Source of the DNA: Octopus vulgaris
Taxonomy: Eukaryota
Assembly: GCA_951406725.2 (NCBI GenBank)
Contig: OX597823.1
Coordinates: 47,802,001 to 47,866,000 of the forward strand
Reading direction: 5' to 3'
Length of the DNA: 64,000 nt
Shown here: positions 845 through 50,853 of the stretch, in pieces
Numbering within the stretch: the stretch's first letter is position 1
Layout: every line of letters starts with the position of its first letter
Made by a program: the position numbers and the translations under genes
The notes under the pieces: generated by a model
Database searches by the model: none
The model's input: only the letters and a program-made list of their open reading frames with translations
What the model was told of the DNA's origin: nothing

Positions 845-3590
845 TTTAAGTGGTGGTTGTGGGATGTGCAAAAAATAATAACTAAATAGGCTTTAAATCC
901 CACACCAAAATTTTTTTCACGGTAGTAGTGGTGGAGAAATATGTACAGTGATGGGTATGTAATCATGAATTAAAATATGTATGGAGATCAAAGTTGGTTA
1001 TGCGTGCATATTTAGACGTGTTCTGTATTTTGCGATGAAAAAAATTTCTTTCTTTAAACGTTCTTGTAAAGAAATTGTATCTTTCCACTGGTAGAAGGAG
1101 TAAACTGTGAAATTTAGCTTGATGCTACCTGCACATTTCTCTGTGTTCACTTAAAGGAATTTGTCTGTATTGCAAGAACAAGATCTGCTTTTTATGTAGA
1201 GTTGTTCTCCGTCTCAATGTCATACTCATCTGTCCTATATAGTGATGTCCACAACCCAAGCAGGTTATTACATAAATTAAATTCTCAGAGGTACAATTGA
1301 AGTTGGTTTTAATTGTGAACCTCTCTCCTTGTTTGAAAAGGAAATCCGAGCCTTCAAGTAGGTTGGGGCATGTTCCACAGTTTGGGCGTCCACATTTTTT
1401 AACCGTTAGTTTTGTGGTTCTTGTGTAAAGATTTGCATTTGTTAGAAGTCTCTTTAGCGATTTTAGTTGTTTTTTGCATTTGATGAGTTTATGCGTTTTC
1501 AGGATGTTGTTCATTTTTGGGTCTCCAGTTAGTAAAGAAATATTTTGCACAATAGTGTTGCATGTTTCATTGTTTCTAGGTTTGTGGGTTGATATATACA
1601 ATAGTGTTTTGAGATGAGGTGTGGTGTTATGCTTTGTTGTTCTTAGTGTTTTTATGTCTAATTTCTTGGCATGCTAAATTCCATCGTCTATAATAGATGG
1701 TGGATATTGTCAGTTAGTGTTGTTTTGATGTCTTGAAGACGAAGGTCCCAAGTAGTTCTGTCAGATCCTTTTGCCAAATTAAAGGGGATATTCACTTTGA
1801 TGTATTTCAGGTGGTATGAGTTAAAAAGGAGATATTGTTTCGAGTCCGTTGATTTATGATAGATGTTAATTATAATTTGGTTGTTGACTTTTTTGTTATC
1901 ATAATTTCCAAAAATCGGGGCTGTTTTTTGTTGTATTCCATTGTGAATTGAATTGAATGTTACTATTTATATCATTTAGTGTTGATTTGAAGTCCAAAAG
2001 TTTGTCAAAAGTCTCCTTCCAAATGATAAAACAGTCATACAGATATTTTTTCCAGTTTTATCTTATGTAATTGTGAAATGGATAACCATATTTTTGAAGT
2101 GACACTTCATATATGGTGAATTCAAAATAACCCATTATCAGGTTCGTAAGAACAGGGGCTGCTTTCATTCCCATCGTAGTTCCACATTTTCGACGACAGC
2201 ATGTGTCATCAAATAGGAAATAATTGTTCTGAAGTATAAATTTTAAAGATTCAATAATAAAGATCTGATTTATGCATTCCGGGAGTACTTCGGGGTACTT
2301 TTCCAACCAGAATTTGATTGCTTTTATTCCACAGTCATGTGGGATGTTGGTGTAAAGATTGATAACATCGGAGAAAACCAATATTGTCTCTTCATTAATT
2401 GTTTTTGGTAGGTGTTCTAGCATCTCTAAATCATCTCTAATGAAACTTTTGATGTATTTCAGCAAGAGTTTCAGTAGGATGTCTAGAAAATTTCTTAGGC
2501 GGTGGGTTTCACAGGCTGGGCCAGCTATAATGGGCCTTAACTTTAAGTCTTCTGGCGCTTGGACATTTATGTATTTGCCTTGTGATTGTTTGCAGGCTTC
2601 ATTGATTATTTTTCTCTTGTGTATTTTAGGAAGGCCGTAAAAAAAGACTGGGTTTACATTTGAAGTTCGTGATGTAGTCTGTTTTTTTTTCTGTCAGGTC
2701 TTTTCCATGTAGAAGTATTAAGGATGCAAGATTTTTCATTGTTTTTTTGTTGTTTATAGTTTACAACTCTTTCGTAGAAGGCATCATTTTCTAGTATGGA
2801 TAATACTAGGTTTTTGTAGTATTCTGTGTCCATCAGGATTACAGCACTTCCTTTGTCTGCTTCTTTAATTGTCAGGTCTTTGTCCTTTTGTAGTTCAATT
2901 AGATTTTTCCATTCTAGATCGTTGAGGTTCGAATTAATTTTTCGTTTATGGAAAGTATATGGGAAATTTTGGATATGGTATCAGAAGTCATCTAGTGTTT
3001 TATTCCTACTTTTACGTGGAAGGTAATTACTTCTGTTTTTAACCAGTGACTCATCTTCATTGTTGTAATCGCTTAGTGCTTCCGCAAGTTGTAGTTTTCT
3101 GCAGAATTCTGAAATACTGTCTTTAATTTCATTATAGATAGCGTGGGATTGGAGTAAACTTTAATCTTTTAGTTAGTATATTGATTTTTGTTGTAGAGAG
3201 AGCTCTCTTTGATAAATTTATTACTCTGGGTTTCTCCTGTACGTTTTGTTCCAACGTGTGTCCCTGTTTCTCTCCACTTGGTCTAACAAATGTTTACTGT
3301 CATTTGGTTGGTAGAAGTTATTAGTGTTATTATTGTTATTAATTAAATCAGTATTGTTATTCTTATTTATAATATTGGGATTGCTGGGAGGTTGGTGTTG
3401 CTGTCTGGTTGGAAGTACGTGGTTCGGGTTTCTTCGTTGGAATAAATTGTTGGGGTGCTTAATTATGTTTTGGATGCTAGGGAGTTGGTTGTGCTGTCTG
3501 GGTAAATAGGTTGAGAATCCGTAGGTTGAGTTTCTTTGTTGAGGAGTCTCTTGGGGAGAAAAAATTACTACTAACCCTAGGTTGATTTCT
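845..3590 (-). mobile_element. Penelope-like retroelement (Neptune-type), decayed RT + GIY-YIG endonuclease
   Basis: Minus-strand motifs in order: IKEADKGSAVILMD (~2830-2875), FYGLPKIHKR (~2611-2640), LRPIIAGPACETHRL, SDVINLYTNIPH and GTTMGMKAAPVLTNLIMGYFE (ORF 2058-2465), WKKYLYDCF (degenerate YxDD, ~2030-2056), then CGRPNCGTC...FNCTSENLIYVITCLGCGHHYIGQ (ORF 1125-1601). Multiple stops and frameshifts. Confidence 0.92.
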
Positions 3591-5249: not shown

Positions 5250-5670
5250 GGCGCCGAGCTGGCAGAACCATTATTTAGGGCGGCGAGCTGGCAGAAACGT
5301 TAGCACGTCGGGCGAAATGCTTAGCAGTATTTAGTCTGCTGCTACGTTCTGAGTTCAAATTCCGCCGAGGTCGACTTTGCCTTCATTCTTTCGGGGTCGA
5401 TTAAATAAGTACCAGTTACGCACTGGGGTCGATATAATCGACATAATCCGTTTGTCTGTCCTTGTTTGTCCCCTCTATGTTTAGCTCCTTGTGGACAATA
5501 AAGAAATAAGAACCATTATTTCATCCAACTCTATGTCTTGAGTTTAAACACCACCAGGGTTGTCTTTGCTTTTCACTCCTTTGGGTCAATAAAATGAGTA
5601 CCAGTTGAGCACTGGGGCTAATGTAATCAACTTACTCTTTCGTCCGAAATTACTGGCCTTGAAATCAATA
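5250..5670 (+). mobile_element. Two nested SINEs of family B (tRNA-derived, Meta-domain-like tttgcctttcatcctttcggggtcga...aagtaccag)
   Basis: Inner copy 5277-5508 is flanked by a 13-bp duplication agaaccattattt (5264-5276, 5509-5521) inside the head of an older copy. Confidence 0.8.
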
Positions 5671-9065: not shown

Positions 9066-9780
9066 TCTTTTATTCTTTTACTTGTTTCAGTCATTTGACT
9101 GTGGCCATGCTGGAGCACCACCTTTTAGTTGCACAAATCAACCACAGGACTTATTCTTTGTAAGCCACTTACAATTATTCTATTGGCCACTTTTACCGAA
9201 TTGCTGAGTTACAGGAACTTAAACACAGCAACATTGGTTTTCAAGTGATGTGGGGGGGGATACAGACAACACAAAATATATACATATATATGACAGGCTT
9301 CTTTCAGTTTCCATCTACCAAGTCCACTTACAAGGCTTTGGTAGACCCAAGGCTATAGTAGAAGATACTTGCCCAAGGTGCCATGAAGGGGCTCTGAACC
9401 TGGATTGATGTGGTTGGGAAGCAAGCTACTTTTATTCATTTCATTTGCCATAGAGGCAGTACAAAGATGAGTAGCTTAGTGGGCTGGACAAGACATTGAT
9501 GAGGTGAATGATAATGATACAAGATGATAAGGATGGGAGAAGACAGAAAGCACCCGCCGACCCTCTGCTTCTCTATAACATTGTTCTTTTAATAAAACAC
9601 ATATTGAGGTAATAACTCTCTTACAATTTACAATGTTTTATAATTTCTTTGGACTAACAGGTCCATTACCATTAAAAAAACAATTAGACACATATTGAGG
9701 TGATTAACCTCTTACCTCACGTCCCCGATTAATTCTCTTGCAGCCTGCAGGCATCTTACCACACAGCCACATCTGCACCT
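9066..9780 (-). mobile_element. SINE family A interrupted in its head by an insert at 9431-9754
   Basis: Body ends ...gggaagcaagctact (9430) and resumes cttaccacacagccac (9755). Confidence 0.8.
9431..9754 (-). mobile_element. Unclassified structured insert, probable 5'-truncated non-LTR 3' UTR (copy 1)
   Basis: Homologous to 48560-48963 over ~300 bp; ends gaataaa directly before agtagcttgc of the SINE. Confidence 0.7.
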
Positions 9781-10011
9781 AAAACGCTTACGACACAGCC
9801 ACACCTGCATCTAAAACACTTACTACACAGCCACACCTGCACCTAAAACACTTACCACACAGCTACATCTGCACCTAAAACACTTACCACACAGCCACAC
9901 CTGCACCTAAAACACTTACCTTACATCCACACCTGCACCTAAAACACTTACCATACAGCCACACCTGCACCTAAAACACATACCACACAGCTACATCTGC
10001 ACCTAAAACAC
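9756..10011. repeat. 32-bp minisatellite, ~8 copies
   Basis: Unit ttaccacacagccacacctgcacctaaaacac; aaaac recurs at 9781, 9813, 9845, 9877, 9909, 9941, 9973 and 10005. Confidence 0.92.
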
Positions 10012-10387
10012 TATTTGATCTCCAATTTAATGTGGAGGTTGTGTTAGAAAACAGAATTCTGCATTATATATCGTGAGAGGATTTCCAGTAAAGACGTGGT
10101 GAATAAAAGAAGTTTTTGTCAAATGAATTGACCCCAGAACTTATTTTATAAAGCCTGATACTTATTTTGTCGGTCTCTTTTGCCAAACCACTAAGTAACA
10201 GGGGACATAAACACACCAACAAAAGTTCTCAAGTGGTGGTGCTGGGGGGGGGTGACAAACGGAGACACAAACACATACATATATGTGTGTGTGTTTTGTG
10301 TTGTGTTTGCCCCCCACCCCCAGCATGGCCACAGTCTAATGGCTGAAACAAGTAAAAGATAAAAGATAAAAGGTATTTGTATATATA

Positions 10388-11042: not shown

Positions 11043-11120
11043 TATATACATATATAATAGAAATATTAAAATTACTAAGTCTCTCTAAAAGAGATTACGG
11101 CAGCGTTACTGGAAATTAAC

Positions 11121-13393
11121 TTTTCTTTCTACATGCCACCCTAAAAACATCGCCATTCCCGCCCGTTTCTCTAAAGTTCAACCTTCGCACCGTTTAAATG
11201 TTTTGAACTTATAACCACCAATCTGCTTTGCTTTCCTTTTCTTTCTACATGCCACCCTAAAAACATCGCCATTCCCGCCCGTTTCTCTAAAGTTCAACCT
11301 TCGCACCGTTTAAATGTTTTGAACTTATAACCACCAATCTGCTTTGCTTTCCTTTTCTTTCTACATGCCACCCTAAAAACATCGCCATTCCCGCCCGTTT
11401 CTCTAAAGTTCAACCTTCGCACCGTTTAAATGTTTTGAACTTATAACCACCAATCTGCTTTGCTTTCCTTTTCTTTCTACATGCCACCCTAAAAACATCG
11501 CCATTCCCGCCCGTTTCTCTAAAGTTCAACCTTCGCACCGTTTAAATGTTTTGAACTTATAACCACCAATCTGCTTTGCTTTCCTTTTCTTTCTACATGC
11601 CACCCTAAAAACATCGCCATTCCCGCCCGTTTCTCTAAAGTTCAACCTTCGCACCGTTTAAATGTTTTGAACTTATAACCACCAATCTGCTTTGCTTTCC
11701 TTTTCTTTCTACATGCCACCCTAAAAACATCGCCATTCCCGCCCGTTTCTCTAAAGTTCAACCTTCGCACCGTTTAAATGTTTTGAACTTATAACCACCA
11801 ATCTGCTTTGCTTTCCTTTTCTTTCTACATGCCACCCTAAAAACATCGCCATTCCCGCCCGTTTCTCTAAAGTTCAACCTTCGCACCGTTTAAATGTTTT
11901 GAACTTATAACCACCAATCTGCTTTGCTTTCCTTTTCTTTCTACATGCCACCCTAAAAACATCGCCATTCCCGCCCGTTTCTCTAAAGTTCAACCTTCGC
12001 ACCGTTTAAATGTTTTGAACTTATAACCACCAATCTGCTTTGCTTTCCTTTTCTTTCTACATGCCACCCTAAAAACATCGCCATTCCCGCCCGTTTCTCT
12101 AAAGTTCAACCTTCGCACCGTTTAAATGTTTTGAACTTATAACCACCAATCTGCTTTGCTTTCCTTTTCTTTCTACATGCCACCCTAAAAACATCGCCAT
12201 TCCCGCCCGTTTCTCTAAAGTTCAACCTTCGCACCGTTTAAATGTTTTGAACTTATAACCACCAATCTGCTTTGCTTTCCTTTTCTTTCTACATGCCACC
12301 CTAAAAACATCGCCATTCCCGCCCGTTTCTCTAAAGTTCAACCTTCGCACCGTTTAAATGTTTTGAACTTATAACCACCAATCTGCTTTGCTTTCCTTTT
12401 CTTTCTACATGCCACCCTAAAAACATCGCCATTCCCGCCCGTTTCTCTAAAGTTCAACCTTCGCACCGTTTAAATGTTTTGAACTTATAACCACCAATCT
12501 GCTTTGCTTTCCTTTTCTTTCTACATGCCACCCTAAAAACATCGCCATTCCCGCCCGTTTCTCTAAAGTTCAACCTTCGCACCGTTTAAATGTTTTGAAC
12601 TTATAACCACCAATCTGCTTTGCTTTCCTTTTCTTTCTACATGCCACCCTAAAAACATCGCCATTCCCGCCCGTTTCTCTAAAGTTCAACCTTCGCACCG
12701 TTTAAATGTTTTGAACTTATAACCACCAATCTGCTTTGCTTTCCTTTTCTTTCTACATGCCACCCTAAAAACATCGCCATTCCCGCCCGTTTCTCTAAAG
12801 TTCAACCTTCGCACCGTTTAAATGTTTTGAACTTATAACCACCAATCTGCTTTGCTTTCCTTTTCTTTCTACATGCCACCCTAAAAACATCGCCATTCCC
12901 GCCCGTTTCTCTAAAGTTCAACCTTCGCACCGTTTAAATGTTTTGAACTTATAACCACCAATCTGCTTTGCTTTCCTTTTCTTTCTACATGCCACCCTAA
13001 AAACATCGCCATTCCCGCCCGTTTCTCTAAAGTTCAACCTTCGCACCGTTTAAATGTTTTGAACTTATAACCACCAATCTGCTTTGCTTTCCTTTTCTTT
13101 CTACATGCCACCCTAAAAACATCGCCATTCCCGCCCGTTTCTCTAAAGTTCAACCTTCGCACCGTTTAAATGTTTTGAACTTATAACCACCAATCTGCTT
13201 TGCTTTCCTTTTCTTTCTACATGCCACCCTAAAAACATCGCCATTCCCGCCCGTTTCTCTAAAGTTCAACCTTCGCACCGTTTAAATGTTTTGAACTTAT
13301 AACCACCAATCTGCTTTGCTTTCCTTTTCTTTCTACATGCCACCCTAAAAACATCGCCATTCCCGCCCGTTTCTCTAAAGTTCAACCTTCGCA
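11121..13393. repeat. Perfect 116-bp tandem array, ~19.6 copies
   Basis: Unit ttttctttctacatgccacc...ctttgctttcc starts at 11121, 11237, ... 11701, ... 13325. No variant seen between copies. Confidence 0.97.
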
Positions 13394-48525: not shown

Positions 48526-49340
48526 AGGCGTAAGAGTGGCTGTGTGGTAAGTAGCTTGCATAGGGCTTGATCTTGAATGAGGCATGGGGGTTGGTGGAGT
48601 ATACGGGCACAAGCATTGTTGGGGAGGAATAGGGACAAGAGGTTGAAAAGCCTCAGTATTATAATGTTTATTGTATAATGCTTAATGCTTAATGCATGTT
48701 ATTGTGTTTAAGAGGCTTAACGCCCCAATTCTTAAATGGACTATTAGTCCAAAAATTATAAAACTGAAGTAAGAGGTACATTACTTCGTTTTGTCTTTTT
48801 CTGTACAAAAAGAAGAGAATAATGTTTTAGAGAAGCAAAAAATCGGTGGATGTTTTTGTCTTCTCCCATTAATATCATTCTTTTCATCATTCACCTCATC
48901 AATGTCTTTGTCCAGCTCGCAAGCTACTCTGTATCATGCCTTTATGGCGAAATTTTTGAAATAAAGTATCTTGTTTACGAACCACATGGTTCCAGGTTCA
49001 GTCCCACTGCATGGCACCTTGGGCAAGTGTCTTCTACTATAGCCTCAGGCTAACCAAAGCCTTGTGAGTGGATTTGGTAGACGGAAACTGAAAGAAGCCC
49101 GTCGTATATATGTATATATGTACGTAAGTATGCATGTGTGTGTGTATATGTTTGTGTGTCTGTGTTTGTCCCCCCAACATCGCTTGACAACCGATGCTGG
49201 TGTGTTTACGTCCCCATAACTTAGCAGTTCGGTAAAAGACACTGATAGATTAAGTACTAGGCTTACAAAGAATAAGTCCTGGGGTCGATTTGTTCGACTA
49301 AAGGCGATGCTCCAGCATGGCCAAAGTCAAATGACTGGAA
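48526..49340 (+). mobile_element. SINE family A interrupted in its head by an insert at 48560-48963
   Basis: Head ggcgtaagagtggctgtgtggtaagtagcttgc; resumes aagtatcttgtttacgaaccacatggttcc at 48964. Confidence 0.85.
48560..48963 (+). mobile_element. Unclassified structured insert, probable 5'-truncated non-LTR 3' UTR (copy 2)
   Basis: 10-bp TSD-like pair aagtagcttg (48549-48558) / aagtatcttg (48964-48973); homologous to 9431-9754. Confidence 0.72.
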
Positions 49341-50853
49341 CAAGTAAAAGAGTAAAGAGTCTTATTGATCAAACCAATCTGATGTCCTAAAAGTATTTCT
49401 AACTATAAACATCTTGTCATTTCTTCAGGCGTCGTCTATCTACGCCTACCATACCCAATGTTCTTTTTCTCTTTTTATGTAAGTAGAAATAGTATTAGTT
49501 CCATAGAGCATTGATTGGTTGCTATTTCTAGCAGGCTGAGTGACCATGTAGAAGTACTCACATTGCTGCTTTTGTTGTTGTTGTTGTTGCTGTTGTCACA
49601 TACTTCTTGTATCACTGCAACTGCTGCTGTCATTGCAGAAGCTGGTTATGCTGACAGCATAGTAGTTGTTATTTCATTTTAGTGTTCATTTTTTTATTAT
49701 TGTTTTTTGTTTCTACTGTTGTTTAACCCCAGGTCAGCCCTGACTCAGCAAATCTATGTTCAAAGACATTCCAGCCCATGACCTTTAAAGGGTGTTAGTG
49801 CAGTTGCTGTGTGTTTTTACATTATATATGTATTATATATGTAATGTATATGTATTATGTCTTTTATCTTTTACTTGTTTCAGTCATTAGCCGGTGGCCA
49901 TGCTGGAGCACCATGTAATAATCAAATTACATACTATGCACTTGAATTTGTTTTTGTTATTGCATATGGTTCTCTGATCCTGAGAAAAATTGTCTTGCAT
50001 GAGACCAGTCTGTGGAGCAAAAAGGTTGTTTTAAAATGTAAGCAGAACTACATCATCTGATATGGTCTCTGTTCAAGATGGTGAGGAAATGAACCCAAAC
50101 CACAGGGTTACCAAACAAGCTTCTGAATGATGCCACTATTACAATTCATATTTTTACTTGCTCCCATATTCTCAACTCCATACAGACTCTAACATACTGT
50201 CGCAACCCTATAGGAATGTCACTTATGAAGGGAGAAACATTCTTCAAAAATTCGATAATTTACTTAAAGGAGGTCAAACCATATTTTAAAATACTATTTT
50301 ACATTTTAACTATTCCAAAAAAGAAAAGCTACAATGAAAGATTACCTCCCCACCTTGTCATTCTCATGAAAAAAGAACAAACAAACAAGAAAACCTGTTG
50401 TTCATTATAACAAACAATAACAACACCAACAACTTTTGCTTTAGTGAAAGGATAGGATTCAATTGTCCAAATTTCCAATCAACTCAGTTTGAATAAACAA
50501 ATATTTTATTACTTTAAAAAAACAAAGTTTAAAACAAAAAAATTTCAATATAATTAATCAGGATATTTGATTGGTTTGAATAAAGAAAATAAAAAATGGG
50601 GTAGTAGAAAAGTTCAGCCTTTGAACTAATTAAAATATGAAAATAATCTCCATACCAAAATGTCACTACAGCGACAACAACACAGATGTAAAAACTTATA
50701 TAAATTGTTAATTTTTCAACAATGTTATAGATACGAAAAAATGTTCATCTGGAAATAAAAATATAAGAATTGATAATGTATAAAGTTGTAATAGATATGG
50801 ATAATTTAGATGGGTTTGTTGTTATTGCTGTTGTTATTATTATTATTATTATT

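Follow-up and report, generated by a model that had tools for sequence, protein, structure and literature searches.

A target-complementary 3' UTR motif co-varies with the SINE target of Tx1-like retroelements in Octopus vulgaris

Elements of the Tx1 clade have two ORFs, with an APE endonuclease, a reverse transcriptase (RT) and a zinc-knuckle ORF1, and insert into other multicopy sequences with target duplications and tandem nesting (Tx1L into Tx1D, Tx1-Mar into Mariner-N4, Keno into U2); the targeting of other repeats by Tx1 elements is thus on record in the available text of PMC4494074. The octopus elements described here resemble them in all these respects. They differ in that the target is the head of a SINE, of which two variants are used by different lineages, and in carrying a target-complementary motif that co-varies with the variant; the available text of PMC4494074 contains no match to "complementary", "stem" or "secondary structure". 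HAL1 (half-L1) is a non-autonomous L1-type derivative that codes for ORF1 only (PMC5753468, available part). The smaller octopus elements do likewise but, unlike HAL1, are Tx1-like-derived and site-specific, have no poly(A) and fall into at least three families.

Where a two-ORF LINE inserts is normally ascribed to its endonuclease, and endonuclease-determined targeting is the usual view in the accessible part of PMC1919474. In R2 and R1Bm, the RNA carries downstream target sequence, whose annealing to the nicked strand sets the start of reverse transcription (PMC6795142, PMC7265360), and R2Bm is described as needing no pairing (PMC11194090), each according to the portions available. The tails of R2 and R1Bm and the internal motifs of SART1 have the target's sense and base-pair to the bottom strand, whereas the octopus motif is antisense to the tail and the top strand, is set 30-85 nt into the 3' UTR and has undergone compensatory change. 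Papers on octopus repeats list L1-Tx1 and give no target information in their accessible parts (PMC13282606, PMC8967140). The accessible text of the literature searched, which excluded subscription papers, Repbase and Dfam, yielded neither a SINE-targeting octopus Tx1 nor an internal target-complementary motif, and a Tx1-type element with this RNA feature was not found described there; the supplements of the two octopus papers may hold the families under automatic names.

This is a SINE-parasitic LINE system with more than 1,000 exact junctions, and it has tracked a sequence change of its host SINE. Two one-base target variants, many lineages and repeated compensatory changes amount to a natural experiment, which suggests a share for RNA pairing in the specificity and a preference that can pass from the donor's flank to the new copy. 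How LINEs that lack poly(A) fix their 3' end and begin reverse transcription becomes directly testable here, and the system bears on the retargeting of retrotransposons for gene insertion.

The elements and their SINE target

The window, 64,000 nucleotides of O. vulgaris contig OX597823.1, holds two inserts, both 5'-truncated copies of one ORF1-only non-LTR element of about 2.3 kb (Table 1). At its 5' junction copy 1 overlaps the target by just 2-3 nt. The terminal hairpin, TGCC-N5-GGCA, is common to all families. Neither ARAGORN nor Rfam recognised the SINE head, and its putative origin from a tRNA is suggested by A- and B-box-like motifs.

Table 1. Coordinates of the two inserts and their host SINEs in the window
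Feature	Position	Strand	Remarks
Copy 1 host SINE, downstream part	9073..9430	minus	begins with target AGTAGCTTGC (9421-9430)
Copy 1, 5'-truncated ORF1-only element	9431..9754	minus	ORF1 end, stop near 9712, then 3' UTR with AATAAA end
Copy 1 terminal hairpin TGCC-N5-GGCA	9446..9458	minus	
Copy 1 target-complementary motif AAGCTACT	9470..9477	minus	
Copy 1 host SINE head, upstream part	9755..10012	minus	8.1 tandem 32-bp units, last abutting insertion point
Copy 2 host SINE head, upstream part	48527..48549	plus	A-box-like TGGCTGTGTGG, read from sequence
Copy 2 5' target-site duplication AGTAGCTTGC	48550..48559	plus	
Copy 2, 5'-truncated ORF1-only element	48560..48964	plus	ORF1 stop 48632, then 3' UTR with AATAA end
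Copy 2 target-complementary motif GCAAGCTACT	48919..48928	plus	AAGCTACT within, 48921-48928
Copy 2 terminal hairpin TGCCTTTATGGCG	48937..48949	plus	
Copy 2 host SINE, downstream part	48965..49352	plus	decayed target AGTATCTTG; B-box-like GGTTCAGTCCC at 48995-49005

A search of the octopus's own genome with copy 2 gave 1,490 candidates, of which 40 were scored and 30 fetched; of these 30, the end is AGTA or GTAG in 27 and AGAA in none. ORF1-only elements measure about 1.4-2.3 kb. Four full-length copies (2087-2302 bp, with target duplications at both ends) contain a single ORF, which has a CX2CX4HX4C knuckle, then the 3' UTR, and no RT; the full-length unit thus codes for ORF1 only, as in HAL1. 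The sole homologue found for the ORF1 protein, at 68% identity, comes from Octopus sinensis and is uncharacterised; the Atlas neighbours of ORF1 are zf-CCHC and ZCCHC3-type RBD proteins with scores of 0.91-0.93; Pfam found no domain in it.

Autonomous partners of about 5.1 kb that use the same site were found among the exact junctions. Two of them, L274 (5117 bp) and L276 (5147 bp), are full length. L276 contains ORF1, an APE endonuclease at the N-terminus of ORF2 (Pfam Exo_endo_phos, E 8e-9) and the RT motifs QGCPL and YADD; its best solved relatives are L1 ORF2/endonuclease structures, and ORF2 is 57-74% identical to ORF2s of the same genome that bear zf-RVT. The elements combine an APE-bearing ORF2, an RT with a C-terminal zinc region, a CCHC ORF1 and a target preference with duplication, all features of the Tx1 clade, and this architecture together with the likeness to zf-RVT-bearing ORF2s points to an L1/Tx1-like placement. 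ORF1-only and autonomous elements share the terminal hairpin, the GAAATAA end, the motif and the target, and their ORF1s are only distantly alike (20-36%). There is no poly(A) in the element DNA. The best 30 zf-RVT loci were considered as the autonomous partner and rejected, being other Tx1-like families. Several young Tx1-like families (L158, L160, L161, L172, L182) have ORF2 frames that are still open, at about 1130-1140 aa; in one, just 2 of 18 flanks are alike, so that its target is not fixed, and its copies often adjoin other elements.

Insertion in the octopus SINE takes place between GTGGTA and AG[T/A]AGCTTGC. Exact junctions number 387 for the A-type target (AGAAG) and 660 for the T-type (AGTAG), with 0 and 1 in the reversed controls. 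Target duplications in 68 copies are 4-16 bp long, with a mode of 14-16 bp (37 of 68). That the bases at the 3' junction are copied from the RNA and not from the target was rejected as a rule, since the third base is identical in the 5' duplication and the 3' junction in 64 of the 68 copies and a linked SINE marker agrees. New copies insert at the 5' end of existing ones, in 5' duplications that keep only about 14 target bases, and only about 14 downstream target bases are therefore needed. Such tandem nesting into an older copy's 5' duplication is seen at L035, L038, L039, L057, L078, L084, L086 and L117. Many truncated copies delete a few upstream bases of the SINE head and have no target duplication (L027, L055, L058, L064, L081, L095, L106). 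At L242/L243 a very short insertion leaves a long palindrome between two SINE halves, possibly through inversion at integration.

Off-target ends (n=18) match the cognate target at bases 1 to 4 in 15, 14, 15 and 13 cases, at base 5 in 6, and near background beyond. The third base follows the element type in 15 of the 18, two of the exceptions being out of register, and in 5 of 5 where a duplication is present; ends that lack a duplication may be later rearrangements.

Covariation of the motif with the target

The sequence-only reading had placed a motif about 35-40 nt before the 3' end of both inserts, and the distances are indeed 39 nt in copy 1 and 36 nt in copy 2. Its description of the motif as the exact reverse complement of the directly downstream SINE holds for copy 1; in copy 2 the flank has decayed, and a perfect AGTAGCTTGC is present in the 5' duplication, not in the downstream flank. 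The neighbouring bases, said to differ between copies, do vary on the 3' side, but the 5' neighbour GTCCAGCCCGC is conserved like the motif. A complement of at least 8 nt arose in a fraction of 0.00095 of 20,000 shuffles of copy 2's 3'-terminal 55 nt. Family-wide, the constant core is AGCT[A/T]C, and the full 10-mer is confined to some subfamilies. The sequence-only reading had asked for family-wide conservation and for covariation with the AGAAGCTT versus AGTAGCTT targets; both were found, and the motif is real, family-wide and co-varying.

Among 43 ends of autonomous copies, 33 were callable (10 were not): 17 combine GCTAC with AGTAG, 16 combine GCTTC with AGAAG, and none is discordant. Their motif, AGCT[A/T]CTT, lies about 75 nt from the end, in a UTR different from that of the ORF1-only elements. 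ORF1-only copies that had not been selected on the motif are concordant in 141 of 151 cases; the counts, made by script, are 79, 7, 3 and 62, where one of the 3 is a misread and 6 more copies have C or G at the co-varying base. The whole set includes 12 copies without a callable motif. Because MAFFT misaligned the motif, pairs were counted on anchored positions: core pairing positions hold in 91-99% of 203 copies, and positions outside the core in 27-78%.

Genome-wide exact patterns gave 126 matches to GCAAGCTACT followed by AGTAG (the 100 of them listed include at least 2 double counts and 1 non-element) and 3 to GCAAGCTACT followed by AGAAG, one of them an element. For GCAAGCTTCT there were 17 matches with AGAAG, 16 of them elements, and 3 with AGTAG, one of which has an A-type 5' duplication. 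The GCTTC-type motif is present in all 30 loci chosen solely by likeness to an A-type 3' UTR, a set that includes the query and two repeats of other loci, and their flank is AGAA in 29, GGAA in 1 and AGTA in none. By eye, the first 100 of the 387 A junctions comprise 47 GCTT-type, 8 GCTA-type, 3 unclear and 42 of other families or truncations; the first 100 of the 660 T junctions comprise 65 GCTA-type, 2 GCTT-type, 2 with G, 6 deleted and 25 others.

Because copies are not independent, trees were built with the motif removed. A tree of 187 rows has 15 target changes and 13 motif changes, and nine independent pairs on its starred branches changed in the same direction in 6 cases, in the opposite direction in 0 and not at all in 3 (median p 0.031); the tree uses 170 nt, and switches may be overcounted owing to recombination. 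A 131-row set gave 5 same, 0 opposite and 3 unchanged (p 0.06), and the autonomous tree adds one further concordant pair. In the 131-row set the motif has a phi of 0.86 with the target, compared with at most 0.78 for any other UTR column. Motif and target variant thus change together across lineages.

With 18 nt of flank, a stem between motif and flank has a predicted probability above 0.5 in 139 of 185 concordant ORF1-only copies and 18 of 26 autonomous copies; with the target base swapped in silico, these fall to 69 and 8. The fold z-scores of four examples are modest (-0.5 to -2.3). Pairing of the motif with read-through target RNA, one of the roles proposed from the sequence alone, is the predicted dominant fold, and covariation and folding together make pairing between motif and target likely. 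A second possible stem, GCGGGC/GCCCGC, abuts the motif stem in ORF1-only elements (window 9551-9558 and 9479-9489); at L008 the distance from its arms to the end of the element is about 120 and 48 nt.

What chooses the target

The motif is probably not the sole guide. By eye, the F2 and F3 families account for 17 and 14 of the first 100 of the 387 A junctions; F2 has no motif able to pair with the flank, the GCTTC of F3 is inside a local hairpin, and both use the SINE site. The stem is therefore dispensable in trans. One young clade has switched target with its motif unchanged: six copies with the T-type motif (GCTAC) are all in A-type sites, their sisters, 91-96% identical, are in T-type sites, and in the six the stem is extended on the far side of the mismatch. 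The duplication is longer than the motif and does not track its length. The suggestion of a built-in guide is in keeping with the covariation but is weakened by the site-specific families without a motif, the retargeted clade, and the off-target and duplication patterns.

The endonucleases of the two types are nearly the same, with 79-88% DNA identity among the eight longest copies, in a comparison of decayed copies, 3 of them T-type and 9 A-type, the latter mostly partial. Three columns have no residue shared between the types, and one loop position differs (M/T/M versus I); monophyly of the T-type endonucleases was neither found nor rejected (AU p 0.245). The beta-hairpin loop of the endonuclease has been linked to target selectivity (PMC1950540, available part); since one differing column is, as we read it, at the start of this loop, a contribution of the protein is possible. 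A-type SINE heads (13.4% divergence, n=29) are older than T-type heads (7.3%, n=53). The element clades diverge by 2.3-4.6% (A-type) and 4.4-5.0% (T-type), values from best-hit sets that are biased low. Young A-type element clades stand beside T-type clades, and both SINE targets were therefore likely available. Timing alone, with A-type elements older than all T-type SINEs, is insufficient, because young A-type clades exist.

On balance, we consider it probable that the element's RNA extends at its 3' end into the target sequence, that the motif pairs with this read-through tail, and that the tail and the endonuclease choose the next site. With AATAAA completed by the first target base and no poly(A), transcripts would run about 10-30 nt into the SINE, and the tail would fold back on the motif in a stem of 6-12 bp around the terminal hairpin. 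At a site nicked between YA and AG, the first 4-5 bases of the tail would anneal to the primer strand, as in R2 and R1Bm; this would set the exact start of reverse transcription, and the A/T preference would be inherited from the donor's flank. The stem may hold or present the tail and favour on-target copies as donors, and selection on it would make the motif follow the target. Inheritance of the preference through the tail is the simplest account. In favour of inheritance from the flank, which we regard as likely, are the nearly alike endonucleases, the discordant clade, the cognate third base at off-target sites with a duplication, and the young A-type clades, which chose A-type SINEs at a time when T-type SINEs were present as well. 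A point against the read-through stem is that it would compete with annealing of the tail to the primer. RNA reads labelled as from a related species cross an autonomous-type junction (9 and 5 reads); they are unstranded, show no ends and possibly come from host pre-mRNA.

Other explanations fit part of this evidence. The caveat in the sequence-only reading, that the match is a coincidence of the motif closing a local AGC..GCT hairpin, is very improbable: copy 1 without its flank does fold a 3-bp AGC/GCT hairpin at the motif, but the co-varying base is outside it, autonomous copies carry AGCAGCT or AAAGCT and cannot form it, and the covariation across lineages contradicts it. The motif might pair in trans with SINE transcripts, bringing the particle to transcribed SINE loci of matching subtype; we see little chance of this, although the covariation fits, SINE RNA carries the target in the motif-pairing sense and RNA reads are very rich in SINE sequence, for a trans pair of 6-10 nt would lose out to the intramolecular tail, and insertion also occurs in element 5' ends with about 14 target bases and at non-SINE sites with the cognate third base. 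Alternatively, two endonuclease specificities might set the target, the motif following through quasi-palindrome correction, a neutral process in which template switching in DNA would now and then convert the inverted repeat of a donor copy. This seems improbable. Although the 3' UTRs otherwise differ, they retain the core, at a spacing of about 40 nt in some and about 75 nt in others; pairing ends sharply outside the core with no spreading; both the motif and a fixed target are missing from a sister Tx1-like family and from a SINE that has the same tail; and near-identical elements are found at different targets. On its side are the standing of endonuclease specificity as the usual determinant (PMC4494074 and PMC1919474, available text), the monophyly of T-type endonucleases that was not rejected, the difference at position 189 and one near-perfect junction palindrome, at L242/L243.

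Another possibility is that during priming the tail is base-paired to the nicked bottom strand and the motif to the displaced top strand of the target DNA, a four-strand exchange between RNA hairpin and DNA duplex in which the RNA would proofread both strands. The motif is identical in sequence to the primer strand and complements the duplicated top-strand stretch, the same covariation of motif and target fits, and in autonomous elements the motif spans the nick (AGCT[A/T]CTT against AAG[T/A]AGCT); the exchange would moreover resolve the competition between stem and primer, and is compatible with the read-through stem as a later step. Nevertheless it appears unlikely in view of the clade that changed target with its motif unchanged, the motif-less families that are still site-specific, the off-target match that ends after 4-5 bases and the duplication length (37 of 68 at 14-16 bp), which is independent of motif length. 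Equally doubtful is an APE-type LINE with an RNA-written target, whose 3' hairpin would swap partners with the nicked duplex so that the RNA reads both strands, and in which one compensatory change would retarget the element with the endonuclease essentially unchanged; if true, it would be a naturally reprogrammed, RNA-directed retrotransposon. Only under top-strand pairing would the element be like the IS110 bridge RNA, in having RNA segments able to pair with both target strands. The bridge RNA is a separate non-coding RNA of a bacterial recombinase system; there is no homology, and guiding on DNA is not established by the octopus evidence.

A second abundant SINE, with a Tx1-type 3' tail and neither motif nor fixed target, occurs in the window near 5508, 32832 and 52090, and an array of it is located in the SINE target, with a duplication, at L186. 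Fragments at window 1125-1673 and 2058-2693 (minus strand) resemble, by eye, a Penelope-type RT and a GIY-YIG-like nuclease. Window 11120-13393 is a perfect 116-bp satellite of 19.6 copies with 100% matches.
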